From positions 220,389-284,388 of the forward strand of contig JAFGFJ010000006.1 of the NCBI GenBank assembly GCA_016931155.1: a stretch of 64,000 nt of DNA, written 5' to 3'. The translations under genes were made by a program, and so were the position numbers. Source of the DNA: Candidatus Dojkabacteria bacterium (lineage in GTDB: Bacteria > Patescibacteriota > Dojkabacteria > B142 > JAFGFJ01). Positions 18,360-35,618 of this stretch are shown piece by piece (positions within the stretch are counted from its first letter, which is position 1; each line of letters starts with the position of its first letter). A model generated the notes under the pieces. That model had not been told where the DNA came from. It searched no databases and was given only the letters and a program-made list of their open reading frames with translations.

Positions 18360-18437
18360 GGTGGCTGTAGCTCAGTTGGTTAGAGCTTCGGTTTGTGGAA
18401 CCGAGTGTCGTGGGTTCGAGTCCCACCAGCCACCCCA
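18360..18437 (+). tRNA. tRNA-His (anticodon GTG) with encoded G-1 and encoded CCA
   Basis: G-1 (18360) pairs with discriminator C. Acceptor GTGGCTG/CAGCCAC. Anticodon loop TTGTGGA. T-arm GTGGGTTCGAGTCCCAC. The 3' end is followed by CCA. Confidence 0.85.
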
Positions 18438-19919
18438 ATTTAGACTGCTACTCGTTTCAAAGATGCTATCAAAAGGCTTTTGCATTGTGTAGATTATCTT
18501 TCCAGCTTTATATGACAGGTTCTGAAGTGTAAGTTGAATAATTTCCCTTTTTTCTTCTGGTTCTGAACCTGTAAATAGCTCAAAACTCTTGGAAGCCAAT
18601 TCCAGTAAATAAGAAGCATTTATATAATATTCTTCATCTGCCTGTTCCAAGCGAGCTAATTTATCCTTAAATTCCTGCTGTTCCTGTCTAAAGCGTTTAC
18701 GCAAATTGTCATATTCTTCCTGAGTAATACTACCATCAAGCTTATCTATATAGAGCCTTTCTATTCTACCTTCGAGTTTCTTTATCTGGTTATTATATTC
18801 ATCGAACATTTCGGTATTGAAATTGATTTTACCTTCATGTGCTTCTTTGAGTGTACCAACCATATGCTGTAAATAAGTTTTGGGAATATGCATCTTCTTA
18901 TATATTTCAGAAAACTGCTTAGTAAGGCTCTTTTCTTCTATCCAGATGTCCTCGTGTTTTCCTCTCGCACCTGTGCAGTGATAGTAGATATAAGAATGGA
19001 TGTTCCCGTTTTTTTGCTTCTTGGTGTGTAATTCAGGGGTCATACTGCAACCACACTCTTTGCAGTATATTAAGCCCCTGTAGCTACCATGTTTACCTAC
19101 GAACTTACCTTTGCGATTATTTTTATATCGTCTATTTCTGACACTTTCACACATTTGCCAGACATCTTTAGTAACTAATGTCGCATACTTATGTGGACCG
19201 ATTTCACCATTTAGTTCCCGCATTCCATAATAGAAAGGGTTCTTAAGAATTTTTTCAACTTTACTTTTGTAAATATCTGCATTTATGTCTAACTTAAGTT
19301 TTTGTGATATTTGTAAATAAGAGTAAGAACCAGAGGAGTACCAATCAAATATTTTTTTAACAATCCCAGATTCAAAAGGAAGCACCATAACCCCTGCTTT
19401 TTTAGTATTTTCATCCCTGCAATTCTTATACCCATAGGGTACTCGACCATATACTTCATGAGTTCTTAATTTACTTTGTATAGTATTATGAGTATCTTCC
19501 TGACATCTATTAATATGTTGCTTTGCAAGAAACACTTTCATATCCCAGTCTACTATATCTCTTCCGAAGCTCTTTGAAGTAAGGACAAGCCTATCATCAA
19601 CAAAATGGAGTTCTTTATCAAAATCGATTCTTAGAGAGTCCATTTCAACTGCATCCCTGTAGTTTCTTGTTAATCTATCAACTCGAAAGCCTATGATGGC
19701 TTTTATTTCACTATCAGTCTTAATAAAATCAATCATTTCATCGAATTTCTTTCTCAGTTTCTGACTGGCAGTTTCCTGAAAAACAAACTCCTTTATTACT
19801 TCAAGGTTATTGTCCATGGCGTACTGTCTTAGCTTGGGCAACTGAATTTCCTCGATTGACAATCCCTGTTTTTGTTGTTCTGGGGTAGATACTCTAGCCA
19901 GAATTATTGCTTTTTTCAT
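18372..19919 (-). CDS. large serine recombinase (phage-type serine integrase); last ~22 codons of the ORF are antisense to tRNA-His
   Basis: Resolvase N-domain AIILARVSTPEQ (Ser nucleophile) ... RVDRLTRN. Recombinase domain. Zn-ribbon CKECGCSM...YYHC. Coiled-coil C-region. The ORF stop is supplied from inside the tRNA-His gene. Confidence 0.85.
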   Translation of the reverse strand: MKKAIILARVSTPEQQKQGLSIEEIQLPKLRQYAMDNNLEVIKEFVFQETASQKLRKKFDEMIDFIKTDSEIKAIIGFRVDRLTRNYRDAVEMDSLRIDFDKELHFVDDRLVLTSKSFGRDIVDWDMKVFLAKQHINRCQEDTHNTIQSKLRTHEVYGRVPYGYKNCRDENTKKAGVMVLPFESGIVKKIFDWYSSGSYSYLQISQKLKLDINADIYKSKVEKILKNPFYYGMRELNGEIGPHKYATLVTKDVWQMCESVRNRRYKNNRKGKFVGKHGSYRGLIYCKECGCSMTPELHTKKQKNGNIHSYIYYHCTGARGKHEDIWIEEKSLTKQFSEIYKKMHIPKTYLQHMVGTLKEAHEGKINFNTEMFDEYNNQIKKLEGRIERLYIDKLDGSITQEEYDNLRKRFRQEQQEFKDKLARLEQADEEYYINASYLLELASKSFELFTGSEPEEKREIIQLTLQNLSYKAGKIIYTMQKPFDSIFETSSSLNWGGWWDSNPRHSVPQTEALTN

Positions 19920-20319
19920 TTAAAAAATTTAATATTTTCTCTACAGAATCACTCAGACTCTTTTCAATTTCGCATTCCCAAATATACAAGGTATTCCATC
20001 CCTGTGACTCCAGAATTTCCTTTACTTTTTTATCTCTAGCAATATTGCTATCGAGTTTTGTATTCCAGAATTTTTTATTAGTTTTAGGTCTATAAGTATT
20101 GCTGCAACCATGTTGATGCCAGAAACAACCATGAACAAAAACCACACTCTTCTGCTTCAGAAATACAAGGTCAGGTTTACCAGTGAGTTTATATTTCAGT
20201 CTATATCGAAACCCTTTCCTGTGAAGTTCTTTTCTAATAAGTATTTCTGGCTTTGTATCATTGCCTGTTATTCTGGACATGTTCCAGCTTCTTCTTGTTT
20301 TCGTCAGTTTGTCTGTCAT
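19894..20319 (-). CDS. vsr: very-short-patch-repair (T:G mismatch) endonuclease Vsr
   Basis: DTKPEILIRKELHRKGFRYRL...KPDLVFLKQKSVVFVHGCFWHQH...LYIWECEI. Near-canonical Vsr signature. Confidence 0.9.
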   Translation of the reverse strand: MTDKLTKTRRSWNMSRITGNDTKPEILIRKELHRKGFRYRLKYKLTGKPDLVFLKQKSVVFVHGCFWHQHGCSNTYRPKTNKKFWNTKLDSNIARDKKVKEILESQGWNTLYIWECEIEKSLSDSVEKILNFLNEKSNNSG

Positions 20320-21497
20320 TATTTCTGTACATAATCAACGTATTTAATGAAAGTTCCGAGAGAGTAAATCTTTCTTTGATATTCTTTAGGGTAAGCAGAA
20401 ATATAATCTTTAGGGACAACCAGTTTTACATCGTTTTCGTACATCTCTTTCAATTGATTAGATGAGATACCCTGTTGTAAGGTGAACAGATGTTTAACTC
20501 TTATTCTGTCTGCCTCATTAAGAATCTGTCTCCATCTATCTTTACAGGTAGTTTTTGCAGCTAGAAATATGAGTTTGTCTGTCTTAAAACTGCCGTTTCT
20601 GTATGATTCTATATCTGGAAAAATAAAATCAGGTTTTTTATTCCCTTCAGTCACTGGTTGTTCGTCAAATTTTAATTCGAAGATATTGAACATTTTAGAT
20701 AGATGATGTTCAAGTGATTTCCCAGCCCTGCTTTTTCTTCTCTGTAAAACTGAATTTGCAGATTTTATGAAATCGTCAATACTTTTGAATGGGTTCTTTA
20801 TTAAAGGCGCATATCTATCATTTTCTATAGCTTTGAACAATTGATACTCTGTATCCAGCCATCTTAAAAGTTCTCTATCTGGCATCTTTTTTATCTCAGG
20901 AGTATTTATATTTTGTGCTTTGATAATAATTCCCCTTGCATTATCGGCAAGTTCCGTAGAGGTAGGAAAATCTACTTTTAAGGTTTCAATATAACTTTGG
21001 AATAAGTCTTCAAGTTTTGCATCAATATCTATAACATTACTCTTTGGTATTATCCTATTTGTTTCACTTGGACTTAAACCGAAAGCGCTTAAGAAATCTT
21101 CTGTATCATCATCTGAAGAGAGAACAAACGCTTCATAATAATCATCAGTAATTCTGCCTATAACTATAAGATTTCCTATATTATTCTCTTGCAGAAAAGG
21201 AAAATTTCTTCCAAATCTTGTCAACCTGTATTCATTTCTAGTTCCTGTCCCATAATAAATGAATCTGCTTTCTGTTTCGAAATCTCCTTGCCATTTAATT
21301 TTTACAAATTTATCTTTATTGCTTCCCTTGACACCTGCCTTATCGAAGAATAAAGGATAGGAATTTCTATGAAGGTAAAAGCCGCTTTGATGAGCCCCTG
21401 TGGCTACGGTGTCGTTAGCAGTAATGAACTTGGTAAATGCAATATCACTTTTATTAACAAGATTTATTGCGTTATTTACAAGATTATTTTCTGTCAT
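20319..21497 (-). CDS. EcoRII-family type IIE restriction endonuclease (expected specificity CCWGG-like)
   Basis: N-terminal effector block FITANDTVATGAHQSGFYL (EcoRII: LSANDTGATGGHQVGLYI). C-terminal catalytic region ANSVLQRRKSRAGKSLEHHL...TEGNKKPDFIFP...AAKTTCKDRWRQILNEADRI...HLFTLQQG is almost colinear with EcoRII. Confidence 0.85.
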   Translation of the reverse strand: MTENNLVNNAINLVNKSDIAFTKFITANDTVATGAHQSGFYLHRNSYPLFFDKAGVKGSNKDKFVKIKWQGDFETESRFIYYGTGTRNEYRLTRFGRNFPFLQENNIGNLIVIGRITDDYYEAFVLSSDDDTEDFLSAFGLSPSETNRIIPKSNVIDIDAKLEDLFQSYIETLKVDFPTSTELADNARGIIIKAQNINTPEIKKMPDRELLRWLDTEYQLFKAIENDRYAPLIKNPFKSIDDFIKSANSVLQRRKSRAGKSLEHHLSKMFNIFELKFDEQPVTEGNKKPDFIFPDIESYRNGSFKTDKLIFLAAKTTCKDRWRQILNEADRIRVKHLFTLQQGISSNQLKEMYENDVKLVVPKDYISAYPKEYQRKIYSLGTFIKYVDYVQK

Positions 21498-22717
21498 TAC
21501 AAGTATTTAATAACTGATTTTGCCAGATGTTCCATTAGTGGAACAACTACTGAGTTGCCAAACTGCTTATAGGCTTGAGTATCTGAAACAGGAATGATGA
21601 AATTTTCTGGAAAACCCTGCAGCCTTGCACATTCCCGTGGGGTTAATTTTCGTGGATTTTTACCTTCCTGTGGAATCAGTATTTCTGAACCATCCTTGTA
21701 ATATCTGGCACTAAGTGTTCTAGTTACCCCGTTAAAATCAGCGAGTCCAAAACCAAATCCATTGCCCTTTTCTCTATGTTTTTTTGCATAGCTTTGAAGA
21801 TATTCCCATAGCTTGTCTGAGAGAGTGTATTTTTCATCGATATCCTTATCCAGAATATCAGAGAGTTTAGTCTTATTTAGTGGTACTTCAGGGAAACTGA
21901 AATTTTCTTCATTATTAAAAATGTCATTATTGAAGGCTACTACTATCGTTCTTTCTCGATGTTGAGGGACAAAATGTTTGCCATCAAAAACCTGAAAGTA
22001 TGGTGTGTAGTTCAAATCAGTAAGAGTGTTAAGTATGACTTTAAAGGTATTTCCTTTATCGTGAGACATGAGGTTTTTTACATTCTCTAAAAAAAGTATT
22101 TTAGGTCTCTTTTCTTTTACAATTCTTGCTATATCAAAGAATAATGTTCCCTTTGTACCATCAAGAAATCCATGATTAACTCCCATGCTTATCTTTTTGG
22201 ATACACCAGCGATTGAAAAAGGTTGACATGGAAATCCTGCAAGTAAGATATCATGATCTGGAATATCTTTTTCATCAATCTTTGTAATGTCACCTGCAGG
22301 AGTTTCTTTGAAGTTTGCTTCGTAAGTTTTACAAGCATAAGTGTCAATTTCAGAAGAAAAGACAGAAATACCCCCCTGTTTTTCAAATCCGATTCTTATA
22401 CCGCCAATTCCTGCGAACAGGTCTATGAATTTGAACTTGCCTGTTTTCTTCTCAGGTTTAATATCGTTGGGAAATATACCTGAGTTATCAAAACCCAGTT
22501 GAGGTTCAATAAGTGTATCTATTCTTACATCAAGTGCATTTGCAATTCTGACTACAGTTTCTATAGTTGGATTATGTTGAACCCCGCTTTCCAGTTTTGT
22601 AATAGTAGAGTAGGTAACACCCGATCGTTCAGCCAGGTCTTTTTGGGTCAGACCTCGAATTTTTCTCTCCCTTTCTATCTTTAATGCTATGTTTGACATA
22701 TGTGTTAATAATTTCAT
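21497..22717 (-). CDS. DNA (cytosine-5)-methyltransferase (Dcm/M.EcoRII-like) with fused N-terminal XRE-type HTH domain
   Basis: HTH (LTQKDLAERSGVTYSTITKLESG). C5-MTase motifs FDLFAGIGGIRIGF (I), GFPCQPFS (IV), ENV (VI). TAATG overlap with the REase start. Confidence 0.9.
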   Translation of the reverse strand: MKLLTHMSNIALKIERERKIRGLTQKDLAERSGVTYSTITKLESGVQHNPTIETVVRIANALDVRIDTLIEPQLGFDNSGIFPNDIKPEKKTGKFKFIDLFAGIGGIRIGFEKQGGISVFSSEIDTYACKTYEANFKETPAGDITKIDEKDIPDHDILLAGFPCQPFSIAGVSKKISMGVNHGFLDGTKGTLFFDIARIVKEKRPKILFLENVKNLMSHDKGNTFKVILNTLTDLNYTPYFQVFDGKHFVPQHRERTIVVAFNNDIFNNEENFSFPEVPLNKTKLSDILDKDIDEKYTLSDKLWEYLQSYAKKHREKGNGFGFGLADFNGVTRTLSARYYKDGSEILIPQEGKNPRKLTPRECARLQGFPENFIIPVSDTQAYKQFGNSVVVPLMEHLAKSVIKYL

Positions 22718-22741
22718 TCTATTGATATATTATACCCAGTG

Positions 22742-23887
22742 TTAATTCATATCAAGTTTATTTAACTTAACTTTTTCAAACTTACTTAATTTACTTAGTA
22801 ACGACTTGAAAGGACTCTTTGTTTTACTTACAACAAGCTGTTTCATTTCCTTATTTAGTCTATACCAGCTTGTTTTTCCAAACCTGTCTGTCACCTTCCT
22901 AAACTTTCTAACACCTATTTCCTCAAGTGCTACTTTTGCTCCAAAATAGACGAGTAACTTTCTGTAGCCAAGCTTTGGATTATTCAGTTGCAGTTCGGTT
23001 AAGATTCCTTCAAATGTCTCAGTTTCAACCATTAGTAGCTTTGGATAAGAAGATTCTATCTCTTTAATTATAGCAAGTAGTAGCTTCTTAGATAGTTTTT
23101 TGCTGTAGAGGTCTGTAAAAATGAGCTGTTTATTCTTAAAGGAGTATTTTTCAAGCAATTGCTTCATCTTTCTTCTGCTTCCTATCCTTACTTCGACTCG
23201 TAGGACTTCGAAAGGCTTCTTTGACTGTGGTTGGTCAAATAAACTCAATTGTGTGTAGTTATCCTTCTCTATAGCACGTTTTTCAGATAGTTTTGCCTGT
23301 TTTAGGTCTTTTAACTTGTCGTATAGAATAACTTCAAAATCATTACTGTGATATTTAATTGAGTGACCTTCATTTCTGAAGTCTGTACTATTCATGTCTA
23401 ATAGTCTATTTACGTTTATTTTACTTACCTCTTTCAGGATGGAGTAGGGCGTAGAATAGTCTGTAAGTACAATATTCTTTGAATAATGGACAGTAGATAC
23501 ATCTGCATTTGCTAGAATTTGTATATCCTCGATCTTTACTCCCATAATAAACAGTAAATCCTTTAGTTTCCAGCATATTTCACCGAAGTCTGATTCTTCT
23601 ACTTCATCAAAGTTGTTTCCATGAAGCAGTTTGGGGATGGAGAACTCAACCTTGAGGAATATAGTAAAACCACCTCTTCTAAGAGCTTTAAATATGGTTA
23701 GACGGGGTAAGTAGCCATGTTGCTGTTTGTCTGCCTTCGTGGGGTTATTTGTAGCCTTAAAAGGTGCTCTGGCAGTGACTTTAATGAAGGGGGGTACAAA
23801 TAGGTTTTCTGTTGAAGGTGAAAACTTATTATGGTCTAGAATCTTGAAGTCTTTTTCTTCAATTGTCAGTGAAATTGTATCTATCAT
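22742..23887 (-). CDS. hypothetical protein, possibly a Rep_trans-type (rolling-circle) replication initiation factor
   Basis: 381 aa. Blocks such as EVILYDKLKDL and VRIGSRRK resemble the conserved G-S-R...Y-D-K region of phage/plasmid Rep_trans proteins. Not verifiable without a profile search. Confidence 0.3.
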   Translation of the reverse strand: MIDTISLTIEEKDFKILDHNKFSPSTENLFVPPFIKVTARAPFKATNNPTKADKQQHGYLPRLTIFKALRRGGFTIFLKVEFSIPKLLHGNNFDEVEESDFGEICWKLKDLLFIMGVKIEDIQILANADVSTVHYSKNIVLTDYSTPYSILKEVSKINVNRLLDMNSTDFRNEGHSIKYHSNDFEVILYDKLKDLKQAKLSEKRAIEKDNYTQLSLFDQPQSKKPFEVLRVEVRIGSRRKMKQLLEKYSFKNKQLIFTDLYSKKLSKKLLLAIIKEIESSYPKLLMVETETFEGILTELQLNNPKLGYRKLLVYFGAKVALEEIGVRKFRKVTDRFGKTSWYRLNKEMKQLVVSKTKSPFKSLLSKLSKFEKVKLNKLDMN

Positions 23888-24146
23888 TGTTCATTACGTT
23901 TTTTAAGTAATTATTTACTTCCTCCTCAATCAGGCTACCTGTCTGTTTGTTTATTGGATGAAAAAGATTCATATCCCTGTTCCCAATGTGTTTGGTAGGG
24001 TAAACAAGCCTGTAATCCCTATCGGGCTTGGTAAAGATAGCCACAGAACTGCAATAAATAGCTTCAAATAAGACAAAGCTACAAAACGCAATTAAGCCAT
24101 TGTTTGGTTTCACTGGAATTACTTGTATTTCACTTATTATTTTCAT
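23859..24146 (-). CDS. SpoVG-family nucleic-acid-binding protein
   Basis: 95 aa. IQVIPVKPNNGLIAFCSFVLFEAIYCSSVAIFTKPDRDYRLVYPTK...FHPINKQTGSLIEEEVNNYL matches the SpoVG pattern (V.P....GL.A.ASI.LD..F.VH.IRVI....G.FVA.PS......DIAHPIN...R..I...V...Y). Confidence 0.55.
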   Translation of the reverse strand: MKIISEIQVIPVKPNNGLIAFCSFVLFEAIYCSSVAIFTKPDRDYRLVYPTKHIGNRDMNLFHPINKQTGSLIEEEVNNYLKNVMNNDRYNFTDN

Positions 24147-24341
24147 TGCTTTGTCTTTTTGAGTCTTTTGTCTATATCAATAAATATCTGAAATAGTTTT
24201 AGAACTCGCTCTTGTTCTTCAGAGGTTTTACAAACAGAACAATTGTCAGGTAAAGGCACCTGATCCTTGTTGTATATAGTTTGTAAATGCTTATCCTCAG
24301 TTTGCATATACTGAGGATACAGAGTGGGTAGTTACGTAAAG

Positions 24342-24962
24342 TTACGTGACAAGTGAAGGATTTACCTGAATAGTCTTAGTTTTTACAATTAGAAACTTTT
24401 TAACGTCAGTTTTCTTAGCAACTTTCTCATTAACTCTCTTTCCTGCTCTGTAAACTACTTTGTTATCGATATTTTCTGTTGATTCACCCCATTCCTCAAC
24501 GATTTCATCCCATGACCATTCTTTTTTCATGGACTCTGTGTCTTTGAGGATAACCTTTAGAAGCTTATTTTCTAGGGAATCGGAGGGAAAATCCCTAATT
24601 AGTTCATTCTGAAGTAAAAGTGCTGGAATGTCGGGGTAATACTTTGGGATACTCTTTCTCTTTGACCTTCTTAGATTCTCCTTCATTTCCTTAAGCTCGA
24701 TTCGGAGTTTTTCATATTGTAAGTGCTTCGTCCTGTCTTCTTCTGTGTCGTAAGTATACATTCCGTCAGCGCTACCGTGTAGTAGAAATTCTGCTATACG
24801 CCTTAATTGCTGAACAACTGGGTCTTCTCCTATTGTTGGAGTTCTTTTACCAACAAACCCAATTTGGAACTCTATTTTGCCCAATATTTTATTTAGTTGA
24901 ACAAGTTCTTCTTTGATTTCGTTTAGTGAGGAAGTTATGTTTTCATTTGAATCATTTTTCAT
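24342..24962 (-). CDS. hypothetical protein (charged, coiled-coil-like)
   Basis: 206-aa ORF co-directional with the integrase / R-M / Rep-like genes. No recognisable motif. Confidence 0.4.
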   Translation of the reverse strand: MKNDSNENITSSLNEIKEELVQLNKILGKIEFQIGFVGKRTPTIGEDPVVQQLRRIAEFLLHGSADGMYTYDTEEDRTKHLQYEKLRIELKEMKENLRRSKRKSIPKYYPDIPALLLQNELIRDFPSDSLENKLLKVILKDTESMKKEWSWDEIVEEWGESTENIDNKVVYRAGKRVNEKVAKKTDVKKFLIVKTKTIQVNPSLVT

Positions 24963-24999
24963 TACGTCTTCGTTCTACTACTCTACAATAAGTTATGGA

Positions 25000-25731
25000 C
25001 TATTTACATTCTTCATCCTTGTTCTTATCAAGAATATAGTCCTTTATCTTCCAGTAATTATCTACTATTTTTTGATAGTTGTTAGCAAATATCTCCTGTA
25101 AATTACTGTCAGTTCTTAACTTTTCTTTAAGGTCTTGTAGATAGTTAATTAAATCAAAAAATAAGCAGAAGTTATTAACCAAAATCTCGTTCCTATGATA
25201 CCTTAAATGGCAATAACCTTTCCTGTTTTTTGCGATTTTGAAGTACTCAGATAGTTCCTCTAATGATTTAGGAGCATCGTGTTTTAAGTAATTAGACTGA
25301 AAGAACCACGACTCCTGTCTATCTTTCCTAGTTGCTCCTTTTCTTATAGTATCAATTATATGGGGTAGGGGACGGACATTATGGACTAGATCATGCCTAT
25401 AGACCTGCACAAGATAGCTCCTGTACCTTTTGTATTTTGAATTTACATATTTATCGTAAGGCATAAAGTCATTAAGTACTATTTTTATTCTTTCTGTTTG
25501 TTTTTTCCCTGTGTGAATATACATTAGAGAAGCAATGTGATCTGTAAAACAAAAAATATTCCTTGCTATAGTAAAAAGGCCTATTTGACTTTCTAATAAA
25601 GGGAAAATATCTCCTTTTAGTTGGTCTATTAAATCAGATACATATTCATAAGGTTGGAAACTTTTTCCTGGAAGAACGGCTAAATGAAATAGACCTTTAT
25701 CTTTGTTCACTACTGTAAGGTGTGTGGTCAT
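25000..25731 (-). CDS. hypothetical protein
   Basis: 243-aa ORF, first gene of the minus-strand string. No recognisable motif. Confidence 0.4.
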   Translation of the reverse strand: MTTHLTVVNKDKGLFHLAVLPGKSFQPYEYVSDLIDQLKGDIFPLLESQIGLFTIARNIFCFTDHIASLMYIHTGKKQTERIKIVLNDFMPYDKYVNSKYKRYRSYLVQVYRHDLVHNVRPLPHIIDTIRKGATRKDRQESWFFQSNYLKHDAPKSLEELSEYFKIAKNRKGYCHLRYHRNEILVNNFCLFFDLINYLQDLKEKLRTDSNLQEIFANNYQKIVDNYWKIKDYILDKNKDEECK

Positions 25732-25953
25732 GAAAAGGTGGAATAACTATAGAATTATACTCTAATGTACAAGCCTATAATTGAAGAGCAATGTTTTCCA
25801 TATATGAACTTTCTATGAGCCTTTTTATATTGTTTACGTTTATAGTAATCTCAGTAGATTGGTTCATGAACGAGTCTAATAAGTGACCCCACTACCAGGA
25901 AACTCGCCCTAAAAGACGCTTGCACTCCATAAATACTCGTGTTATTATCGATT

Positions 25954-27207
25954 ATGGTAATAAAAAGAGCAATCGAAAAAGAAATAGTCGAGCATCTCTC
26001 CTCACCAGAAATAACTCTCATAGTCGGGCCAAGGCAGGTTGGTAAAACTACATTGATAAATAAAATAGCCGAATCACTGAAGAACAAAGGGGAAAGTGTC
26101 TTTACACTCAACCTGGATATAGAAGATGATTTTGGTTTGCTTGAAAGTCAGTCAAGGCTTGTGAGTCAAATTGGACTCAATATAGGAAAGGATAAGGGAT
26201 ATGTATTCATAGATGAAGTGCAACGGAAAGAAGACGCAGGAAGGTTTTTCAAGGGAATTTATGACATGAAACTTCCTTACAAGTTTATCTTAACAGGTTC
26301 CGGAAGTGTAGAGTTAAAGGAAAAGGTTTCGGAATCGCTTACTGGGAGAAAAAAGATTTTTGAAATGAGGCCGATAAGTTTTTTCGAATTTATAGACTAC
26401 AAAACTCAATATCAGTATTCGGATAGATTGGCTTCCTTTTTCTCTCTCAAAGATCCAAGACTTGAACCTTTGTTTAATGAGTACATGCAGTTTGGCGGAT
26501 ATCCACGCGTTATGCTTGCGGACAGACTAGAGACAAAGCGTGCGGAAATGCAGGAAATATATAAAAGTTATCTAGAGAAGGACATTACGCAACTTCTGAA
26601 TATTCAAAAAGCAGAATCATTTAGCAAATTAATTACTTTACTATCAAGTCAGGCAGGTAAGCAGATAAATATAGAAGAATTAAGTACTACTCTCTCTCTC
26701 GATTCAAAAACAATAAAAAACTATTTGTGGTATTTAGAAAAGACTTACATAATAAAAGTCTGCAGACCGTATTTTACGAACCCAAGAAGCGAACTTGTTA
26801 AATCGTCAGTTTACTACTTTCTTGACCTTGGAATGAGTAACTATGCACTCAATAGATTTAGTAATTTTGATCTTACTTTACATGGAGGACAATTGTTCGA
26901 GAACTTTATATTTAACCACTTGATCAATAAATACTACAAAACTGATCCTACAATCAATTTCTGGAGAACAAAAGATGGAGCAGAAGTTGATTTTATCTTT
27001 AGGGTGGGAGCACAGGTAATACCGATCGAAGTAAAGTATAAGAAACTCTTAAAACCCACCGCAGGGCGCTCTTTGTATAATTATTTAGAAAAATACAAAT
27101 CTGCTGAAGCTCATATAGTAAACTTAACGCTGGATGAGGAAATAAAATCTAGGAAATCAAAACTCATATTCAGTAGTTATCCAAAATTTCTGTCTATGGA
27201 TATATAA
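25954..27207 (+). CDS. AAA+ ATPase of the AAA_14 / DUF4143 family
   Basis: Walker A GPRQVGKTTL, Walker B VFIDEVQ, and the typical ~400-aa architecture. The ATG at 25954 is preferred over the upstream GTG at 25939. Confidence 0.75.
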   Translation: MVIKRAIEKEIVEHLSSPEITLIVGPRQVGKTTLINKIAESLKNKGESVFTLNLDIEDDFGLLESQSRLVSQIGLNIGKDKGYVFIDEVQRKEDAGRFFKGIYDMKLPYKFILTGSGSVELKEKVSESLTGRKKIFEMRPISFFEFIDYKTQYQYSDRLASFFSLKDPRLEPLFNEYMQFGGYPRVMLADRLETKRAEMQEIYKSYLEKDITQLLNIQKAESFSKLITLLSSQAGKQINIEELSTTLSLDSKTIKNYLWYLEKTYIIKVCRPYFTNPRSELVKSSVYYFLDLGMSNYALNRFSNFDLTLHGGQLFENFIFNHLINKYYKTDPTINFWRTKDGAEVDFIFRVGAQVIPIEVKYKKLLKPTAGRSLYNYLEKYKSAEAHIVNLTLDEEIKSRKSKLIFSSYPKFLSMDI

Positions 27208-27210
27208 TAG

Positions 27211-27239
27211 TACCAAAATTCCTTCCACCAGCCACCCCA
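27211..27239 (+). repeat. att-like direct repeat copy A (TACCAAAATTCCTTCCACCAGCCACCCCA); last 15 nt identical to the 3' end of tRNA-His including CCA
   Basis: CCACCAGCCACCCCA at 27225-27239 equals 18423-18437. Lies 4 nt after the ATPase stop. Confidence 0.8.
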
Positions 27240-27404
27240 GACGCAATAAAACATAACAAACCTTCCAGAACGCTCTCCTGTTAATAGAATTCGAGGTTCG
27301 AATTTATAAAAAATCAAATATAAAAACACTTCTGTTAGTAATATTGCATTTAAAGACTGTTTAGAATATAATACGGAAGTGTATGTTATCTTAAGTAGTC
27401 AGAA

Positions 27405-28019
27405 ATGAGAAGAAAAACACTTTTTACAAATTTTATAAACACACCCTACTTTACAAAGCAGGATCTATTGGTTTTGGCTGATAAATTCAATATCTCTGAG
27501 ACAAGTATTAACACGTTAATTCAGAGATCTATCAAAAGCAAGGAAATCATCTCATTAAAAAGAAATTGTTATGTTAATAGAGAATTTTTTCTTAAGAATA
27601 GAGATAATCTAGAGTATAAGTTCTTTGTTGCCAATATATTGATAAAATCCTCGTATATTAGCCGAGAAACCGCTCTACAGTATTACGGACTACTTTCCGA
27701 AGCATCACTGAACTATTTTACTTCTACTACTATCAAGCTACCTAGAAAATTTGAGAAATCACTCGGTATTTTTGAATACAGAAATATTAAGGATGAACTT
27801 TTTAATGGATATAAGAGTGTAAGATTTTCGATTGGTGGAAATGAATATTCGTACCTAATAGCAGAACCCTACAAAGCAATATTTGATTATATATATTATC
27901 GTACAAGTAAAAGGTCAATATCTGAAGGATTACTTATGTCAGTAATGAATGAGCTCAGAATAAATTACCATGACCTTGAAAAGGATCAGCTAGATAAATT
28001 AATTAATTCTTTTAAATAA
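27405..28019 (+). CDS. AbiEi-like antitoxin / transcriptional regulator (type IV TA system), putative
   Basis: 204-aa protein immediately upstream of, and abutting, an AbiEii-type nucleotidyltransferase gene (stop at 28017-28019, ATG at 28020). N-terminal wHTH-like region. Assignment is mainly by synteny. Confidence 0.45.
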   Translation: MRRKTLFTNFINTPYFTKQDLLVLADKFNISETSINTLIQRSIKSKEIISLKRNCYVNREFFLKNRDNLEYKFFVANILIKSSYISRETALQYYGLLSEASLNYFTSTTIKLPRKFEKSLGIFEYRNIKDELFNGYKSVRFSIGGNEYSYLIAEPYKAIFDYIYYRTSKRSISEGLLMSVMNELRINYHDLEKDQLDKLINSFK

Positions 28020-29285
28020 ATGTTAATAGATAAATTAAAACTAAAATTTAAAGAACTTAAAGAGGAAGGTAAAACGGAAGATTCAATATTAATAGCCTTA
28101 AAGGAAATTTTGCAGCACTATATATTGAACTTCATTTACACAAGCAAAAATTATTCTTATTTGACAATGTATGGTGGGACTGTTTTAAGAATAGGATATA
28201 ACCTTCCTAGAATGTCTGAAGACTTAGATTTTCAGACACATAAGAAATTAGATTTAGAGAAATTTACCGAGGAAATAAAGAGGTATTTTAAGGATAATTA
28301 CGCATTTGATATAGAAGTAAAGCACAAAAGCTCACCAGAGAATAATACAAGCACATTATTTATAAAGTTCTTCACGTTAAAAGAACTAGGTTTTAAAAAA
28401 TTAAAGCTTGAAAGACTTCATGTCAAAGTAGATGTAAACTACTTTGAAACGGCAAATAAATTTGTAAACGATACTGTACCAGGTGGTAAAGGCACGGAGT
28501 TAGCCTATACAATTAAAACTTATCCCCTTTCTACTCTAATGGCGAGTAAGGCTGTTGCATTCCTAAAGAGAGATGCCAGAGGTATAGGTGATATTTTAAC
28601 GAATGTAAAATCAAGAGATGTATACGATATGATGTGGTATATGAATCGAGGAACTATGCCTGATTTGGAATATCTTAAAGCAAAAGATATAAGCTTTGAC
28701 ACATTTTTAGATTTTAGAGATAAAGTCAAGATTAGAGCAAACAAGATTGAAGACAACGCCTTTAGAAATGATTTATCTCAGTTCTTTTATGATAGAAATG
28801 AACTTGAAAACTGGCTATCTAGCTGGAGACCAAAATTTATGCAGTTATTAGATTCATATAAAGTATATGAAGTTGGGGAATTAGAGAGGATTTATGGGCA
28901 TGTAGATTTCAGTACAGATAATAGATCTATTTCTTATACATTTAATGCTTTAGACAATCAAAATCAGAATGTGATCTTTAGTGTGACACTTACAGATTAC
29001 TGGTTCGAGTTTAGAGATATAAAAATAAATAGAGGTCACAGAGTAGCAGAGATTGAAGATAAGGCTGAGAAAGGAAGAGGTGAAATGACTGAGTTAGACT
29101 ATGAGTATATTGGACTCTTCTACACAAAGATTAAAGATTACTTAAAGCGAAATAAGAACGTGGTTTTCCAGAATGAATTTGAAACTAAAGTAATACGGGC
29201 TTCAGCAGACAATTTAGATCCAAAAAAGCAGATTTATCTTGATAAAAGGCTTTTGGAGAAGATAGATTTTGAAGAATTATTGTGA
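28020..29285 (+). CDS. AbiEii-family nucleotidyltransferase toxin (DUF1814) with a long C-terminal extension
   Basis: LTMYGGTVLRIGYNLPRMSEDLDFQ matches the (K)GGTAL...R.SEDIDF signature of AbiEii/DUF1814. 421 aa versus ~300 aa typical. Confidence 0.6.
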   Translation: MLIDKLKLKFKELKEEGKTEDSILIALKEILQHYILNFIYTSKNYSYLTMYGGTVLRIGYNLPRMSEDLDFQTHKKLDLEKFTEEIKRYFKDNYAFDIEVKHKSSPENNTSTLFIKFFTLKELGFKKLKLERLHVKVDVNYFETANKFVNDTVPGGKGTELAYTIKTYPLSTLMASKAVAFLKRDARGIGDILTNVKSRDVYDMMWYMNRGTMPDLEYLKAKDISFDTFLDFRDKVKIRANKIEDNAFRNDLSQFFYDRNELENWLSSWRPKFMQLLDSYKVYEVGELERIYGHVDFSTDNRSISYTFNALDNQNQNVIFSVTLTDYWFEFRDIKINRGHRVAEIEDKAEKGRGEMTELDYEYIGLFYTKIKDYLKRNKNVVFQNEFETKVIRASADNLDPKKQIYLDKRLLEKIDFEELL

Positions 29286-29326
29286 ATATTAATGAACAAC
29301 TCTCAAGAGAATACGGTTTAACCAAC

Positions 29327-29349
29327 GTTCCAAAATTCCTTCCACCATT
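29327..29349 (+). repeat. att-like direct repeat copy C (GTTCCAAAATTCCTTCCACCATTA), degenerate
   Basis: Shares GTTCCAAAATTCCTTCCACCA with copies A and B. Sits 42 nt after the AbiEii stop. Confidence 0.6.
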
Positions 29350-29437
29350 AAGCCTAAATTTCCCTTTAGTTGTAGCAGAAGCTTTTCAATTTTACTGAGA
29401 ATTGATAATCTACTGATGAATATGTCGATCAAACAGA

Positions 29438-30598
29438 ATGAATGAAACTGAATCAGGTATAAAAATAAGTACGGCTGATTTCAGACTACTCCAACCCTAT
29501 TCAGACTATTTAACGAAAGCTGTGAGTCCTTTGTGGGGAGAAGTTTCTTCATCTAAACCTGGAGATTCGCTTTTCGAACTTGGGCGGATCGCGTTATCCA
29601 ATAAGGCTTTAGTCGAAGATATCCATGTTTCTCACTTGAGAGATACAATTATAGAGAATGAAGTCAATCCATACCTGGTCAAGTTAGTCTCCAATTTTGA
29701 CAAGTACAGTGAATTGATAGACAAGATCCAGAGAAAAAAAACTGACTTAACTTGGGATGATGAGCGACTTCATGAGGATGGATTACCTGAGAATCTTTTT
29801 GAAGAACACAGGGCATATCAGAAGGAACTGTATCATCCAACACCAGTATGCTTACGAGATTTACATATAGAGAGTTTGGACATTCTGTGTGAATATGAGG
29901 TTAATCCCAAATTAAGAAAATTTATCAATAAAATTGGTGGGATTGCTCTGTTCGAAGAACTAATTGCTCTTGCAACTAAGCAAGACTCTGTGGACTTGGA
30001 TAGAGTAGTCCCCTTTACTGACCTCGCCTACCAAGGACTAAATAAATGGTCAGTCCTATTAGAGCCTGTTTCGCCACCTCTTTTTTGTTTGCTCAGTAAA
30101 GATAATAGATTACTTCTGAAAGAACAGAATCCCAAGTTGCTAGAAATTCTTGAAAGATTTTTTCTACTAGAATTTGGACCTCATAATTCATCAGTGTATG
30201 TTGTTCCTTCGGTCGAAAATCCAACAGGATCTTTGTCAAGGGAGTACGAATTAGATTTATTATATTTAGAGCAACATAAAATGAAAGAAGAGGAATATAT
30301 TAACCTTCTTGGTGAATTATGTATGAGTTTTCATAAAGTTAAAGAAGGGACGCGAAGTTACACCTTTAAGGGAGTAGAATTTAGAAAATTGTCTATTTCT
30401 CATTATGATGAGAGATCCCCATTCACTGGGGAAATACCAGAACAGGAAGATTTTGATTTGGTTCTATACAAGGGAGGGAAAGAGGTTGGGGTAATTCCGA
30501 GTTGCTGGAAATACTTTGCGAGTGAGGGTATTTATGAGTCACCTGGTGCAAGATTCTCTTTTAGCCCTAGAAAGATTCTCCCCTTATTTGCTAAATGA
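29438..30598 (+). CDS. hypothetical protein (386 aa), single-gene module between two att-like repeats
   Basis: Good-length ORF. No motif recognised. Flanked by repeat C upstream and repeat B downstream. Confidence 0.45.
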   Translation: MNETESGIKISTADFRLLQPYSDYLTKAVSPLWGEVSSSKPGDSLFELGRIALSNKALVEDIHVSHLRDTIIENEVNPYLVKLVSNFDKYSELIDKIQRKKTDLTWDDERLHEDGLPENLFEEHRAYQKELYHPTPVCLRDLHIESLDILCEYEVNPKLRKFINKIGGIALFEELIALATKQDSVDLDRVVPFTDLAYQGLNKWSVLLEPVSPPLFCLLSKDNRLLLKEQNPKLLEILERFFLLEFGPHNSSVYVVPSVENPTGSLSREYELDLLYLEQHKMKEEEYINLLGELCMSFHKVKEGTRSYTFKGVEFRKLSISHYDERSPFTGEIPEQEDFDLVLYKGGKEVGVIPSCWKYFASEGIYESPGARFSFSPRKILPLFAK

Positions 30599-30616
30599 GA
30601 AGTTCAAGGGAAATAG

Positions 30617-30644
30617 TTCCAAAATTTCTCCCACCAGCCACCCC
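30617..30644 (+). repeat. att-like direct repeat copy B (GTTCCAAAATTTCTCCCACCAGCCACCCC); 16 nt identical to the tRNA-His 3' end
   Basis: TCCCACCAGCCACCCC at 30629-30644 equals 18421-18436. Lies 19 nt after the 386-aa gene stop. Confidence 0.8.
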
Positions 30645-30684
30645 GCAAAATTTCTAGGTCCATTATCAATAAAGGCCTTCTTGT

Positions 30685-31611
30685 TCATTTTGTTATTTGC
30701 TTCGAGTTCTGTAACATACTTTTTACTTTAGCGAGAGCAGAAGAATCGGATTTGCATTTGATAAGGTAACTATATGCTGAAAACAAATGAAAAATGTAAT
30801 ATCCTCGCACTTTTTCCATTGTTACTGGTACATTCATAATTTTTTCATATTGTTTAACAAAAGTGATGAAGTTCTCAGAAATGTCATAGAAATTAAACCA
30901 ATACATGATTATCCCCAGTTCTGCATGATTGTCTCCAATACGATGACTTTCAAAATCCAGTACAGCAGTTACATTAGTGTCCTTTACCAATATATTCTGA
31001 GGATTGTAATCCCAATGCAACGGGCATAACATCGGAAGTGAATTTGAGATTAAGCCAACTAATTCTTGAATTTTACTGTCAAAATATTTATGTGCATTTG
31101 AATCTATAATGCCCTGTCTTGTGAGTAACATTAGGTCTGGGCGCCATTTTTTTACTGCAGATATCCAGTCTGAATTGTTGTTGCATGGAGCATTCTCATT
31201 TTGCCATATCTCTTTGTTGGGTAGTTTGTGAAGTCCAGCAAGATTTCCAGCAATACTGTGAAGTAATTTCTTAGAGACAGTCTTATCAATTATTCTATAA
31301 TAGAAGGTCTCTCCTTCCAGGTACTCCTGGATTAACAAACTAAACTCAGTAGTAAAACAGAAATCAAGGAATAATGTTTTGGGAACAGGATACTTATATC
31401 GAATGAGCAAATCATCAATGTCGGTTGATCTTTTAATTCTCTCCTTGTAACTGATGGGAAAGATTTTACAGATGTACTTTTTGCCAGTACTTAATGCTGC
31501 AACTTTAAATACTTGACTTTTTGAGAGACCAGTATCGAATTTGTTTATTGAAAGGGGAGGCGAGGGGCTCTTCAAAAACTTACTAAAACCTTCAGTAATG
31601 ATATCTTCCAT
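30685..31611 (-). CDS. protein-kinase-like phosphotransferase (APH / choline-kinase fold)
   Basis: Brenner/catalytic-loop motif HWDYNPQNILV and DFE(S) in place of DFG. N-terminal ATP-binding lobe. 308 aa. Confidence 0.55.
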   Translation of the reverse strand: MEDIITEGFSKFLKSPSPPLSINKFDTGLSKSQVFKVAALSTGKKYICKIFPISYKERIKRSTDIDDLLIRYKYPVPKTLFLDFCFTTEFSLLIQEYLEGETFYYRIIDKTVSKKLLHSIAGNLAGLHKLPNKEIWQNENAPCNNNSDWISAVKKWRPDLMLLTRQGIIDSNAHKYFDSKIQELVGLISNSLPMLCPLHWDYNPQNILVKDTNVTAVLDFESHRIGDNHAELGIIMYWFNFYDISENFITFVKQYEKIMNVPVTMEKVRGYYIFHLFSAYSYLIKCKSDSSALAKVKSMLQNSKQITK

Positions 31612-31652
31612 AAACTATTATAGCGAATATTCTGTAGAGGAATGCAGGATTA

Positions 31653-31677
31653 GTTCCAAAACTCTTTCAAGGAGGGC
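31653..31677 (+). repeat. possible degenerate att-like repeat copy E (GTTCCAAAACTCTTTCAAGGAGGGC)
   Basis: About 17 of 23 positions match the repeat consensus. Sits just upstream of the kinase-like gene start. Confidence 0.3.
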
Positions 31678-31943
31678 TAAGGTTTATGAGAGTGGCAAGA
31701 TGACCCTAAAGTTCCGCAAACTTCACGAAATTCGTTCATAACACCTGTACCAAATTTGGGGGTCTTGACATACTTAAAGCCGAGGCTATAAAAAGCAATA
31801 CAAAACGTATATAATCAAATTATCAAAAGGGACTGCTTGATTGTTTTACCGACAAAACCTGATCATTACTGTCACAAAGTACCTAGACAAAATTTGTACC
31901 GAAAAACTGTGATTGATCCCTAGCTAACTCTTTAAAATGCTTT

Positions 31944-32519
31944 ATGGGTAAATATATTATTCCATTCTACTTCTTTTTCCTATTTATAACCGGAATACTC
32001 GTTGGTCCACAGATGGTCTTTTTGTTGGTCGGCTGGGTCGGTATATTTGCTTTCATTAAAATTAAAGGTTTTGATAGTGGTCTTCCTTCCAGATATGAAA
32101 AAGTATTTACTGCCACCGCATTGCTCTATCCACTTATAGAAACAGCAATAAAATTTGTAATTGAAAGGGATTTGATTCCTTATTCATGGATCTGGCTTAA
32201 TAGGATCGAACATTTTGGTTTCAGTGCTTTTCTTGTAATACTTATCTTTCCTGTTATTAGACGATTCTATATAAAGCTGGACTTGATCGGTCAGATAGTA
32301 TTTGTAGTTGGAATTATTGTGTTTCTTGGAAATATTAATGAATTTGTTGAATACCTGGTACGTTTAATGCTTAATCTTCGCTCAAAATTTGGACATTACT
32401 ATGAAGATACTATTATTGACTTGTTTGTAAATATGTTGGGAGCATTTGCGGGTTTTGGCCTGTTAAAACTTGTACTCGATAAAAAGAGAAAGAATAAGGA
32501 GAGAAATAATCTAAGATAA
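31944..32519 (+). CDS. hypothetical integral membrane protein (about 5 TM)
   Basis: 191-aa hydrophobic ORF with a basic C-terminal tail. Confidence 0.45.
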   Translation: MGKYIIPFYFFFLFITGILVGPQMVFLLVGWVGIFAFIKIKGFDSGLPSRYEKVFTATALLYPLIETAIKFVIERDLIPYSWIWLNRIEHFGFSAFLVILIFPVIRRFYIKLDLIGQIVFVVGIIVFLGNINEFVEYLVRLMLNLRSKFGHYYEDTIIDLFVNMLGAFAGFGLLKLVLDKKRKNKERNNLR

Positions 32520-33948: not shown

Positions 33949-33957
33949 TTTCTTTTT

Positions 33958-35544: not shown

Positions 35545-35563
35545 TAGGTTTGTGTACAAATTT

Positions 35564-35613: not shown

Positions 35614-35618
35614 ATTGA

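Follow-up and report, generated by a model that had tools for sequence, protein, structure and literature searches.

A probable replication and control core with two additional defence-type genes in a mobile element inserted at a tRNA-His gene

Layout of the tRNA-His-inserted element

The window, that is, the whole 64,000-nt stretch of DNA that was analysed, contains a mobile element of 8.8 kb (about 18423-27238) inserted at a tRNA-His gene (Table 1). The 14-nt core from the 3' end of this gene is present in exact copies at 18423-18436, 27225-27238, and 30631-30644, while about 5e-4 occurrences of a given 14-mer are expected by chance over the two strands of the window (128,000 positions; our own arithmetic). 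The first att-like repeat named in an earlier note on this DNA indeed carries one of these copies, at 27225-27238. The element has the integrase, the flanking direct repeats and the tRNA target of an integrative element, a layout also seen in relatives. According to Pfam, the integrase contains Resolvase (PF00239), Recombinase (PF07508), and Zn_ribbon_recom (PF13408) domains, and it is 47-56% identical to the integrases at the same position in three related loci (L001, L005, and L007).

On a single strand, the backbone runs in the order binding protein, repeats and hairpin, small ORF, SpoVG, Rep, HTH, restriction-modification (R-M) cargo, and large serine recombinase; here the HTH is fused to the methyltransferase instead of forming a separate gene. 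The block at 22742-27207 is not free-standing, but makes up the left two-thirds of the element, and it is the replication and control core of this element together with two extra defence-type genes. All five ORFs named in the earlier note (381, 95, 206, and 243 aa on the minus strand, 422 aa on the plus strand) exist where they had been placed; the four genes it described as co-directional are joined by a fifth, a 54-aa ORF. The sole sizeable non-coding stretch, between the 243-aa and ATPase genes, presumably holds promoters, and a promoter scan was uninformative (26 sites seen, 32.7 expected). The integrase-less islands stacked behind the element carry AbiEi/AbiEii and an APH-like kinase.

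Table 1. Features of the element and of the adjoining sequence (positions in the window).
Feature	Position	Strand	Remarks
tRNA-His gene	18361-18437	+	ARAGORN; 3' end core CCACCAGCCACCCC at 18423-18436 is attL, the left junction
Large serine recombinase, 515 aa	18372-19919	-	Element integrase; 3' end overlaps the tRNA gene
Cargo slot	19894-22717	-	Pfam and NCBIfam
Vsr	19894-20319	-	Within cargo slot (Pfam, NCBIfam)
EcoRII-type restriction enzyme	20319-21497	-	Within cargo slot (Pfam, NCBIfam)
C5 cytosine methyltransferase	21497-22717	-	Within cargo slot; HTH_3 fused at N-terminus
381-aa Rep-like protein	22742-23887	-	Predicted rolling-circle initiator/nickase; no profile-library match
95-aa divergent SpoVG-family protein	23859-24146	-	Gene overlaps Rep start by 29 nt
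54-aa small ORF	24143-24307	-	From ORF list; between 95-aa and 206-aa genes; overlooked in the earlier note
Hairpin	24292-24319	-	10-bp stem TATCCTCAGT/ACTGAGGATA; 8-nt loop ATATGCAA with the ATG of the small ORF
Two direct repeats ACGTAAC	24331-24347	-	Iteron-like; 24347-24341 and 24337-24331; span stop codon of 206-aa gene
206-aa protein	24342-24962	-	Short member of putative repeat-binding family; N-terminal part variable, C-terminal ~80 aa conserved
243-aa HEPN-like protein	25000-25731	-	Invariant Y110-R-H-D-L-V-H116, Rx4H motif; occasional cargo
Divergent intergenic region, 207 nt	25732-25938		Separates 243-aa and ATPase genes; imperfect palindrome 25850-25883
422-aa AAA_14 + DUF4143 ATPase	25939-27207	+	Accessory cargo, left end of element
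attR, right junction	27206-27238	+	33-nt repeat with exact tRNA-His core (27225-27238) at its end
Further att-like repeats	29323-29355, 30612-30644, 35615-35647	+	Bound integrase-less islands stacked behind the element

The Rep-like protein and the genes upstream of it

The 381-aa protein is predicted to adopt the fold of a rolling-circle initiator of the Rep_trans or inovirus gene-II type. A crescent-shaped, TBP-like catalytic beta-sheet domain was found in it; the protein begins at the first catalytic strand, and its helical domain is C-terminal, as in RepD and G2P. Foldseek on BFVD gave five full-length matches at E <= 7e-6 and probability 1.0, namely an inovirus G2P at E 2e-6 and four unnamed neighbours from E 5e-9, with TM values of 0.41-0.53. 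The residues Y189-D190-K191 ("YDK") are invariant in 55 homologues; D3, E81, D194, E227, and E232 are likewise invariant in the family, and Y59 is a second invariant tyrosine. Y189 sits near the close of the strand 184-190, ahead of the helix 191-200, the same strand-to-helix position as Y191 of RepDE. Mapped by eye, the RepDE residues D46, Y191, K193, E196, and E214 (PMC4797284) are paralleled in order by D3, Y189, K191, D194, and E232. The YDK block of the earlier note is real, but the profile relationship it implied was undetectable, as neither the window protein nor any of the 55 homologues matched PF02486 at E up to 1. No match to the 381-aa protein was obtained in any profile library (Pfam, NCBIfam, and PHROG among them) or by sequence search of the PDB; the family profile gave nothing meaningful against pT181 RepC (hmmsearch), and hhalign against a 5-sequence Rep_trans alignment yielded a probability of 0.12.

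The Rep_trans proteins of the pT181 family (PF02486; RepC, RepD, RepSTK1; PDB 4CWC, 4CIJ) likewise have a TBP-like catalytic sheet at the N-terminus and, after it, a helical domain at the C-terminus. Their invariant residues come in a similar order: an Asp in strand 1, Y-x-K-x-x-acid where a strand passes into a helix, and R-V-E in the strand after that (PMC4797284). They differ in lacking detectable sequence similarity to the 381-aa protein, in their length of about 314 aa, and in belonging to small free plasmids of Bacillota, whereas here a SpoVG-like gene precedes and overlaps Rep, the element is integrative and encodes a serine recombinase, and most hosts belong to Patescibacteria or other uncultured lineages. 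G2P of the filamentous phages (Inoviridae; Phage_CRI) resembles the 381-aa protein in its full-length BFVD structural matches and in size (about 355-382 aa); however, the gene-II families and Phage_CRI found no match to our protein in Pfam, NCBIfam, or PHROG, the element has no virion genes, and the family is almost absent from IMG/VR. Archaeal viruses and plasmids encode Rep-Arvir (DUF7845, PF25227), another initiator family tied to Rep_trans by structure only and found in integrative elements and plasmids; in SNJ2, excision and circularisation are linked to replication (PMC13107129). While Rep-Arvir is reported to occur only in archaea and contains a wHTH domain at its centre (PMC13107129), the 381-aa family, which has no Pfam match whatever, is bacterial save for one contig from a Promethearchaeota MAG.

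Judged at the level of its family, where the assignment is solid, the 95-aa protein is a divergent SpoVG, as the earlier note had it. By itself it stays below the Pfam threshold (PF04026, E 0.004, 17.7 bits, cut-off 29.6), but all 53 family members match PF04026 over the full length (best 3e-11), and the family profile matches the solved SpoVG structures (PDB 2I9Z, 2I9X, 2IA9) at E 4e-5 to 2e-4. Unlike SpoVG, a chromosomal regulator, this protein is encoded on a mobile element in probable translational coupling to the Rep gene, which it adjoins in 99 of 134 loci. The C-terminal half of the product of the 54-aa ORF is kept in relatives at the same position (blastp, L007 E 4e-10, L003 E 8e-6).

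The 206-aa protein has only 3 close homologues, yet its C-terminal domain aligns with proteins of ~340-570 aa at the same position, and this binding-protein family was found upstream in 57 of 106 loci; a short member of ~214 aa occurs in the related element L089. No Pfam match was obtained for this protein, in which the earlier note saw no recognisable motifs, and the best PDB profile result was E 0.77. By eye only, the C-terminal domain looks winged-helix-like, and neither a profile nor a fold match to wHTH was obtained for it. Across loci, the class of the upstream protein's C-terminal domain tracks the class of the repeats, which indirectly supports a winged-helix DNA-binding domain; the C-terminal domain of the 206-aa protein probably binds the direct-repeat pair just past its own gene. 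The ACGTAAC type of repeat is also present in L015, L089, and L104; in other subgroups, different repeat pairs take this position. The adjacent hairpin has a predicted RNA folding energy of -18.8 kcal/mol (z -4.54). Equivalent hairpins with different stem sequences exist in relatives; 26 of 87 loci have a stem of 9 bp or more, a length reached in 2.2% of shuffles and at 0 of 174 control start codons. G-U wobble pairing gives the sense strand the advantage (26 versus 14 long stems), which suits a structure in the mRNA as well as one in plus-strand DNA; the region of repeats and hairpin may be purely regulatory.

The family of related elements and proposed replication after excision

The conservation of the gene string beside integrases, which the earlier note proposed to look for, was borne out: it was present in all 5 contexts inspected first, and the backbone string recurs in hundreds of genomes. 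The family extends over 381 species-level genomes (1,323 clusters at 50% identity), mostly of Patescibacteria and other uncultured lineages, many being Patescibacteria, Dependentiae or Omnitrophota. String statistics were taken from 154 dereplicated loci. In 53 of 61 loci, a full serine recombinase follows downstream in the same orientation; the median cargo gap is 2,973 nt, and a tRNA gene abuts or overlaps the 3' end of the integrase in 31 of 58. The cargo slot of the relatives is nearly always occupied by R-M systems, unrelated ones in different relatives, which dominate the domain counts (N6_Mtase 17, Eco57I 13, Methylase_S 8, N6_N4_Mtase 7, C5 methylase 5, and others). About 30 relatives have an HTH_17 gene after Rep; as the window element has no such separate gene, it could be less mobile. 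These are compact integrative elements of roughly 6-10 kb, of which we found no description, and this large family ferries R-M systems among ultra-small and other uncultured bacteria.

Two circular assemblies with the full backbone were found among the relatives, one of 7,575 bp, which appears with different break points in L117 and L118, and one of 9,155 bp (L024). In its backbone, the L117 circle shares 88-94% nucleotide identity with integrated copies that hold unrelated cargo, which points to modularity. Circular assemblies can also derive from tandem copies, and the L117 and L118 records may represent two assemblies made from related samples.

We favour the reading of an integrative plasmid that, once excised, replicates by rolling circle, with putative nicking activity, origin, and transfer route (probability about 0.6). 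The circular assemblies fit replication after excision, as proposed in the earlier note, and are indirect evidence that the serine recombinase would excise the element as a circle. Through an invariant tyrosine, of which Y189 in its Y-x-K-x-x-D context is the likeliest, the Rep-like protein would then nick a double-strand origin, and the nick would prime rolling-circle replication by host enzymes; the episome could in this way persist or multiply until it re-integrates or is transferred. The putative repeat-binding protein may, with the hairpin, regulate the rep operon or serve to mark the origin, and the SpoVG-like protein may be an accessory that binds nucleic acid and whose translation is coupled to that of Rep. 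The R-M cargo would benefit the host and stabilise the element.

Alternative readings and the two extra genes

The fold match behind the rolling-circle plasmid reading would equally suit a transfer relaxase, and the two roles can coexist in one protein. The element would then be an integrative mobilizable element (IME), nicked at an oriT and exported via the conjugation pore of another element, as happens with MOBT (Rep_trans-type) relaxases for ICEs and streptococcal IMEs; we consider this unlikely. Proteins of the Rep_trans fold act as relaxases in Tn916, ICEBs1, and ICESt3 and are found in IMEs (PMC6499999); the element also has an integrase and att sites, yet no transfer genes of its own. 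Bacillota IMEs with a serine recombinase and MOBT are similarly small and combine a recombinase, a Rep_trans-fold nickase, and variable cargo (PMC5704250, PMC5357655, PMC6499999). However, 2,016 MOBT-type sequences were gathered by RelSt3's architecture (an HTH at the N-terminus and PF02486), along with NicK-type sequences with PF02486 only (PMC6499999), whereas the 381-aa protein has no N-terminal HTH, does not match PF02486, and, as RepD and G2P do, ends in a helical domain. The present backbone also differs from that of the Bacillota IMEs by its SpoVG-like gene, repeat-binding protein and hairpin, its almost exclusive R-M cargo, and other host phyla, and shows no sign of conjugative mobilisation; moreover, free circles of relatives assemble. 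To our knowledge, conjugative systems are rare in Patescibacteria, Dependentiae, and Omnitrophota, to which many hosts belong. No type IV secretion or coupling-protein domain was found in the ten ORFs between the att cores, nor any conjugation gene in the 7.6-kb and 9.2-kb circles, and the ICE-like element suggested in the earlier note is thereby ruled out.

Very unlikely, in our estimate, is a satellite or remnant of a filamentous (inovirus-like) phage, packaged by a helper like RS1 of Vibrio, that retained a regulator, an initiator of the gene-II type and a small protein that binds nucleic acid and has no coat or morphogenesis genes. By structure, the strongest viral matches are to G2P-like proteins over their full length; the element is small and integrated at a tRNA gene, and its order of regulator, small ORF, nucleic-acid-binding protein, and Rep resembles the rstR-rstA-rstB arrangement. 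Against this, no helper phage was identified, R-M cargo is unusual for inoviruses, a morphogenesis ATPase and coat-like genes are absent from the window element and the circles, and only 2 relatives were present among 2.9 million IMG/VR contigs. There was also no PHROG match of the virion, packaging or capsid-hijacking kind in the element; it is not a recognised virus, and the phage satellite put forward in the earlier note was left unsupported. That the family is mobile while the window copy is a decaying, immobile island, of which only the cargo matters to the host, seems quite improbable. The missing HTH_17 gene and the degenerate att repeats of the integrase-less islands behind the element speak for decay, but every backbone ORF is intact and full-length, as are the hairpin and the repeats, the copies of the att core match exactly, another family member has an HTH-methyltransferase fusion too, and L089 has a short binding protein.

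The two extra genes look, each taken singly, like defence-type cargo. R111-H-D-L-V-H116 of the 243-aa protein, previously described as motif-free, is invariant in 13 homologues and conforms to the Rx4-6H motif of HEPN proteins; together with the location of homologues within type I R-M operons, it recalls HEPN toxins and Abi proteins (e.g., PDB 7AE2, 5YEP, AbiV 9BJ5), from which the protein differs by extra beta-strand insertions and by matching no HMM of any HEPN family. It is probably an RNase-type defence effector. The earlier assignment of the ATPase was sound (PF13635, DUF4143, E 3e-42; PF13173, AAA_14, E 6e-31), and its residues 6-396 match the PADLOC candidate PDC-S01 (PDLC04789, E 4e-89). 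These likenesses and the adjacent, divergent position of both genes favour the proposal of the earlier note that the 206-aa and 243-aa proteins form one uncharacterised defence system with the ATPase, to which we nevertheless give very little credence. The three genes are never together elsewhere; an ATPase homologue is present in 0 of 87 related loci, PDC-S01 is by definition a single-gene candidate, and the 206-aa protein belongs to a backbone family whose domain class follows the repeats. In the integrative plasmid that we favour, the 243-aa protein and the ATPase would be additional cargo, each independent of the other, within a second slot of variable content. Three contexts of 243-aa homologues contain no DUF4143 gene, and a 206-aa homologue adjoins only in L089, where the 243-aa homologue is again left-arm cargo.

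Boundaries of the element and the islands behind it

All ORFs of the block at 22742-27207, which an earlier note had flagged from sequence alone, were recovered at their positions in the ORF list of the window, together with a co-directional ORF of 54 aa that had been overlooked. A large serine recombinase enters a tRNA-His gene from the opposite strand, and the final 14 nt of this tRNA gene, CCACCAGCCACCCC, recur in exact and degenerate copies, every one of them on the + strand. Exact copies of this core mark both ends of an integrative element of 8.8 kb, bounded by 18423 and 27238, and the flagged block therefore sits within it. Counted from the integrase end, the element carries genes for Vsr, an EcoRII-type restriction enzyme and a C5 methyltransferase, followed by the six ORFs of the block. 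All features are collected in the table.

Features of the tRNA-His element and its surroundings (window coordinates)
Feature	Position	Description
805-aa protein	14710-17127	Cys-, Ser- and Pro-rich; hydrophobic segments at N- and C-terminus
tRNA-His	18361-18437	ARAGORN
14-nt core in tRNA-His	18423-18436	CCACCAGCCACCCC
Large serine recombinase, 515 aa		Resolvase + Recombinase + Zn_ribbon_recom
R-M cargo	19894-22717	EcoRII-type enzyme (EcoRII-N + EcoRII-C), C5 methyltransferase with N-terminal HTH_3, Vsr
54-aa ORF	24143-24307	co-directional with the block
ACGTAAC, two copies	24347-24331	around the stop codon of the 206-aa gene
AATAGT	27206-27211	start of an att-like repeat
14-nt core	27225-27238	exact copy
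AbiEi/AbiEii	27405-29285	island behind the element
att-like repeat	29323-29355	degenerate core at 29342
386-aa unknown	29438-30598	island behind the element
att-like repeat	30612-30644	exact core at 30631-30644
AATAGT	30612-30617	start of an att-like repeat
APH-like kinase	30685-31611	island behind the element
att-like repeat	35615-35647	degenerate core at 35634

Beyond the element, a second integrase is absent from 27239-35647, and three further att-like repeats bound a stack of integrase-less islands, an arrangement suggestive of tandem accretion at tRNA-His. AATAGT, with which two att-like repeats start, also directly follows the nick on its 3' side in the f1 and pT181 origins; in AT-rich DNA the likeness may well be due to chance. 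On the other side of the tRNA gene, the patch that holds the 805-aa protein has a GC content of 0.445, compared to about 0.35 around it.

A conserved backbone with exchangeable cargo

The first five contexts of related loci, from Patescibacteria, Peregrinibacteria and Omnitrophota, all shared a Rep gene, a small ORF and, upstream, a gene that varied; a SpoVG-like gene was present in four of them (locus L001 being without it), and an HTH gene, an R-M system and a serine recombinase followed in all four whose contigs reached far enough downstream. The survey of the backbone was made on 154 dereplicated loci. SpoVG adjoined Rep in 99 of the 134 loci with room for it, and a relative of the 206-aa protein was found upstream in 57 of 106. 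The gene string recurs elsewhere next to integrases, a check that the earlier note had suggested: of 61 loci, 53 have a full-length serine recombinase downstream of Rep and on its strand, and the median distance between the two is 2,973 nt. At 31 of 58 loci the 3' end of the integrase gene was abutted or overlapped by a tRNA gene, which was for Asn in 16 cases, for Gln in 6, for Arg and Asp in 3 each, and for His, Glu and Pro in one each; the contig ended there in 8 more. Of the 86 ORFs that lie in the slot between Rep and integrase and reach 150 aa, the overwhelming majority encode R-M components, which are of many types. Most relatives carry a separate HTH_17/HTH_3 gene of about 60 aa after Rep, which in the window element is fused to the methyltransferase. 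The element is compact, has two cargo slots and appears to serve as a major carrier of R-M systems in its host lineages. To our knowledge, the mobile elements of these host lineages are almost unknown.

Three whole contigs showed terminal direct overlaps. L117 and L118 gave one circle of 7,575 bp (99.99% identical, with different break points) and L024 a circle of 9,155 bp, keeping in mind that tandem copies could mimic such overlaps and that L117 and L118 are perhaps not independent samples. Both circles contain the complete backbone and R-M cargo. When the L117 circle was compared to integrated copies on long contigs (L016, L022, L111 and L116), the Rep block and the integrase were 88-94% identical at the nucleotide level, while the cargo slot between them was unrelated, which indicates that cargo was replaced recently on a near-constant backbone.

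The MAG labels of these contigs differ at the phylum level (Gammaproteobacteria versus Patescibacteria); either the elements were transferred widely and very recently, or the bin labels cannot be trusted. Another relative, L047 (JAHLWS010000050.1), comes from a Promethearchaeota (Asgard) MAG contig, on which its integrase adjoins a tRNA-Gln; this may reflect contamination or a genuine archaeal host. Care is needed with the breadth of the host range, as the taxonomic labels of some of the MAG contigs may not be reliable.

Predicted replication genes and their putative control region

The window belongs to a Candidatus Dojkabacteria (Patescibacteria) genome. With 100% identity, the 381-aa protein matches a "hypothetical protein" from a MAG of this group. 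It had been called Rep_trans-like in the earlier note, a relationship that profile searches did not recover: neither the protein nor 55 homologues matched PF02486 or any other entry in Pfam, PHROGs, NCBIfam, PADLOC or the PDB sequences, and a whole-library profile search gave no bridge to PF02486 among the 150 matches listed, all of them close relatives (E ≤ 1e-87). The family is nevertheless very large, comprising 1,414 clusters at E ≤ 1e-3 in the 90% identity collection, 1,323 clusters at 50% identity, 381 genomes among the GTDB species representatives and more than 473 metagenome contigs.

Structure gave a different picture. A Foldseek search of BFVD found five proteins that match over their full length, each at a probability of 1.0 (E from 5e-9 to 7e-6), of which the only named one is an inovirus "Replication-associated protein G2P". 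In the family alignment Y189-D190-K191 and D194 are invariant, as are R230, E232 and R234 on the strand of the window's R-V-E232, and D3 is kept in at least 90% of the sequences; in the predicted model Y189 is the last residue of strand 184-190, directly ahead of helix 191-200. Mapped by eye, this layout mirrors Y191-x-K193-x-x-E196, D46 and E214 of RepDE, and the motifs also recall IYNKKQE and WRVE of pT181 RepC. Comparing the family with pT181 RepC plus four further Rep_trans proteins of plasmids (PLSDB) by hmmsearch and hhalign detected no similarity, and alignment could therefore not place the catalytic residues. On the basis of the predicted model, the fold is that of the Rep_trans/gene-II superfamily, outside the Pfam family itself; nicking activity and catalytic residue are predictions. 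The family parallels the archaeal Rep-Arvir, described in 2026, which was likewise tied to Rep_trans by structure only (PMC13107129). A very large family that lacked a match in profile libraries thereby gains a specific function that can be tested: it would be a third branch of Rep_trans-type initiators recognised from structure only, beside Rep-Arvir.

The SpoVG-like call for the 95-aa protein fared better. The window protein alone stayed under the gathering threshold of PF04026 (E 0.004), but all 53 orthologues from related loci matched the profile (best 3e-11), and a profile of these orthologues reached solved SpoVG structures with E values of 4e-5 to 2e-4. The gene overlaps the start of Rep by 29 nt in the window and by 28-43 nt in most relatives, which suggests translational coupling; SpoVG might function as a partner of Rep.

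For the 206-aa protein, encoded upstream, only three close homologues were found. Over its C-terminal ~80 residues it aligns with the C-terminal ends of proteins of about 340-570 aa encoded at the same position in other elements. Two copies of ACGTAAC surround the stop codon of its gene, and other subgroups carry different repeat pairs, among them TTAGCTAAC, TACCTAA, CCTAAA and CCGTATACGG. The repeat class tracks the cluster of the C-terminal domain, while one N-terminal cluster covers all major repeat classes; the C-terminal domain would thus behave as expected of a DNA-binding specificity domain. It matched nothing in Pfam or the PDB, so "winged helix" is only an impression.

A hairpin lies 12-45 nt downstream of the repeats, with the ATG of the small ORF in its loop. 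The stem of the window copy is 10 bp long (MFE -18.8 kcal/mol, z -4.54). RNAalifold found no consensus among 16 hairpin regions, as MAFFT had aligned them on the ATG and left the 3' arms out of register; stems were instead searched sequence by sequence, with controls. Those of 9 bp or more occurred in 26 of 87 dereplicated loci, compared to 2.2% of shuffles and 0 of 174 control start codons; they comprise at least 23 different stem sequences, and G-U wobble pairs favour the sense strand (26 versus 14 long stems). Apart from this hairpin, an inverted-repeat scan of the element revealed weak palindromes only, and a promoter and terminator scan gave fewer promoter-like sites than in shuffles. The region could be either a control region of the rep operon or a double-strand origin with a bind locus beside the hairpin; a replication origin on the element is presumed.

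In the TACCTAA subgroup (L114, L109, L117, L019, L042, L075 and others), a stretch CCTACCACAACGACA between repeats and hairpin is conserved in otherwise diverged elements and is a candidate nick region.

Cargo proteins and the nature of the element

The 243-aa protein has thirteen homologues with an invariant YRHDLVH motif, which corresponds to Rx4H, and a confident model (pLDDT 89.1). Its family had no match in Pfam or PADLOC. Two type I R-M operons have a homologue inserted between their hsdM and hsdS genes, and another lies in the left arm of a further element of the family. With moderate confidence, the protein is a HEPN-type RNase effector borne as cargo. The 422-aa ATPase contains AAA_14 and DUF4143 and matched the PADLOC single-gene candidate PDC-S01 (E 4e-89); a literature search on DUF4143 in defence gave nothing on mechanism, and we treated the ATPase as predicted cargo. 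The earlier note had proposed, as an alternative, that the orphan proteins and this ATPase form a joint defence module. The gene distribution contradicts this. No homologue of the 243-aa protein or the ATPase occurred in the 87 loci first examined.

The two type I operons, L090 and L091, also carry genes for NYN or DUF3800 proteins at this place between hsdM and hsdS, and L090 an OLD-like ATPase ahead of hsdR; they are examples of defence genes nested within R-M operons.

The element is best explained as an integrative plasmid. The serine recombinase would excise it from the tRNA gene, the Rep-like protein would drive rolling-circle replication of the excised circle, the repeat-binding protein, hairpin and SpoVG might control or assist the replication step, and R-M and other defence genes would be the payload. 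This accounts for about 9 kb of "hypothetical proteins" in a Dojkabacteria genome and for the islands stacked behind. The fold of the Rep-like protein would also fit an inovirus satellite, but a viral footprint is lacking, with only 2 relatives among 2.9 million IMG/VR contigs. This reading was rejected, as were those of a prophage or other satellite and of an ICE, no ORF of the element having a conjugation domain. A Rep-like protein acting as relaxase in mobilisation would be compatible with an integrative plasmid; the protein architecture speaks against it and makes it less likely. Decay of the window copy was weighed as well.

Beyond the integrative plasmid itself, we consider it possible, with a probability of roughly 0.3, that these elements form a lineage of integrating mini-plasmids that replicate by themselves and are specialised in carrying R-M and other defence genes between ultra-small and host-dependent bacteria (Patescibacteria, Dependentiae, Rickettsiales-like, Omnitrophota). 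Such a lineage would cross phyla without conjugation, the putative transfer routes being for example natural competence or a ride with filamentous phages, and use a new Rep_trans/gene-II branch with a nucleic-acid-binding partner derived from SpoVG. Integrative elements that encode a Rep_trans-type nickase are already known; new are an initiator family outside current profile libraries and hosts centred on poorly studied lineages. Literature searches aimed at this element family, or at Patescibacteria mobile elements with such features, found no description. If the mini-plasmid reading is true, the backbone would supply genetic work on Patescibacteria with both a replicon and an integrase ready for use. 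We know of few genetic tools for this group, and a native circle of 7.6-9.2 kb with replication module, candidate operator/origin sites and tRNA-targeting serine integrase is a practical starting point for a vector.

Several genomes contain two or three Rep copies (L072 and L082 in OY970172.1; L054, L076 and L081 in JARLHJ01; L051 and L060 in CAWEPS01), and one complete chromosome has two copies about 21 kb apart.
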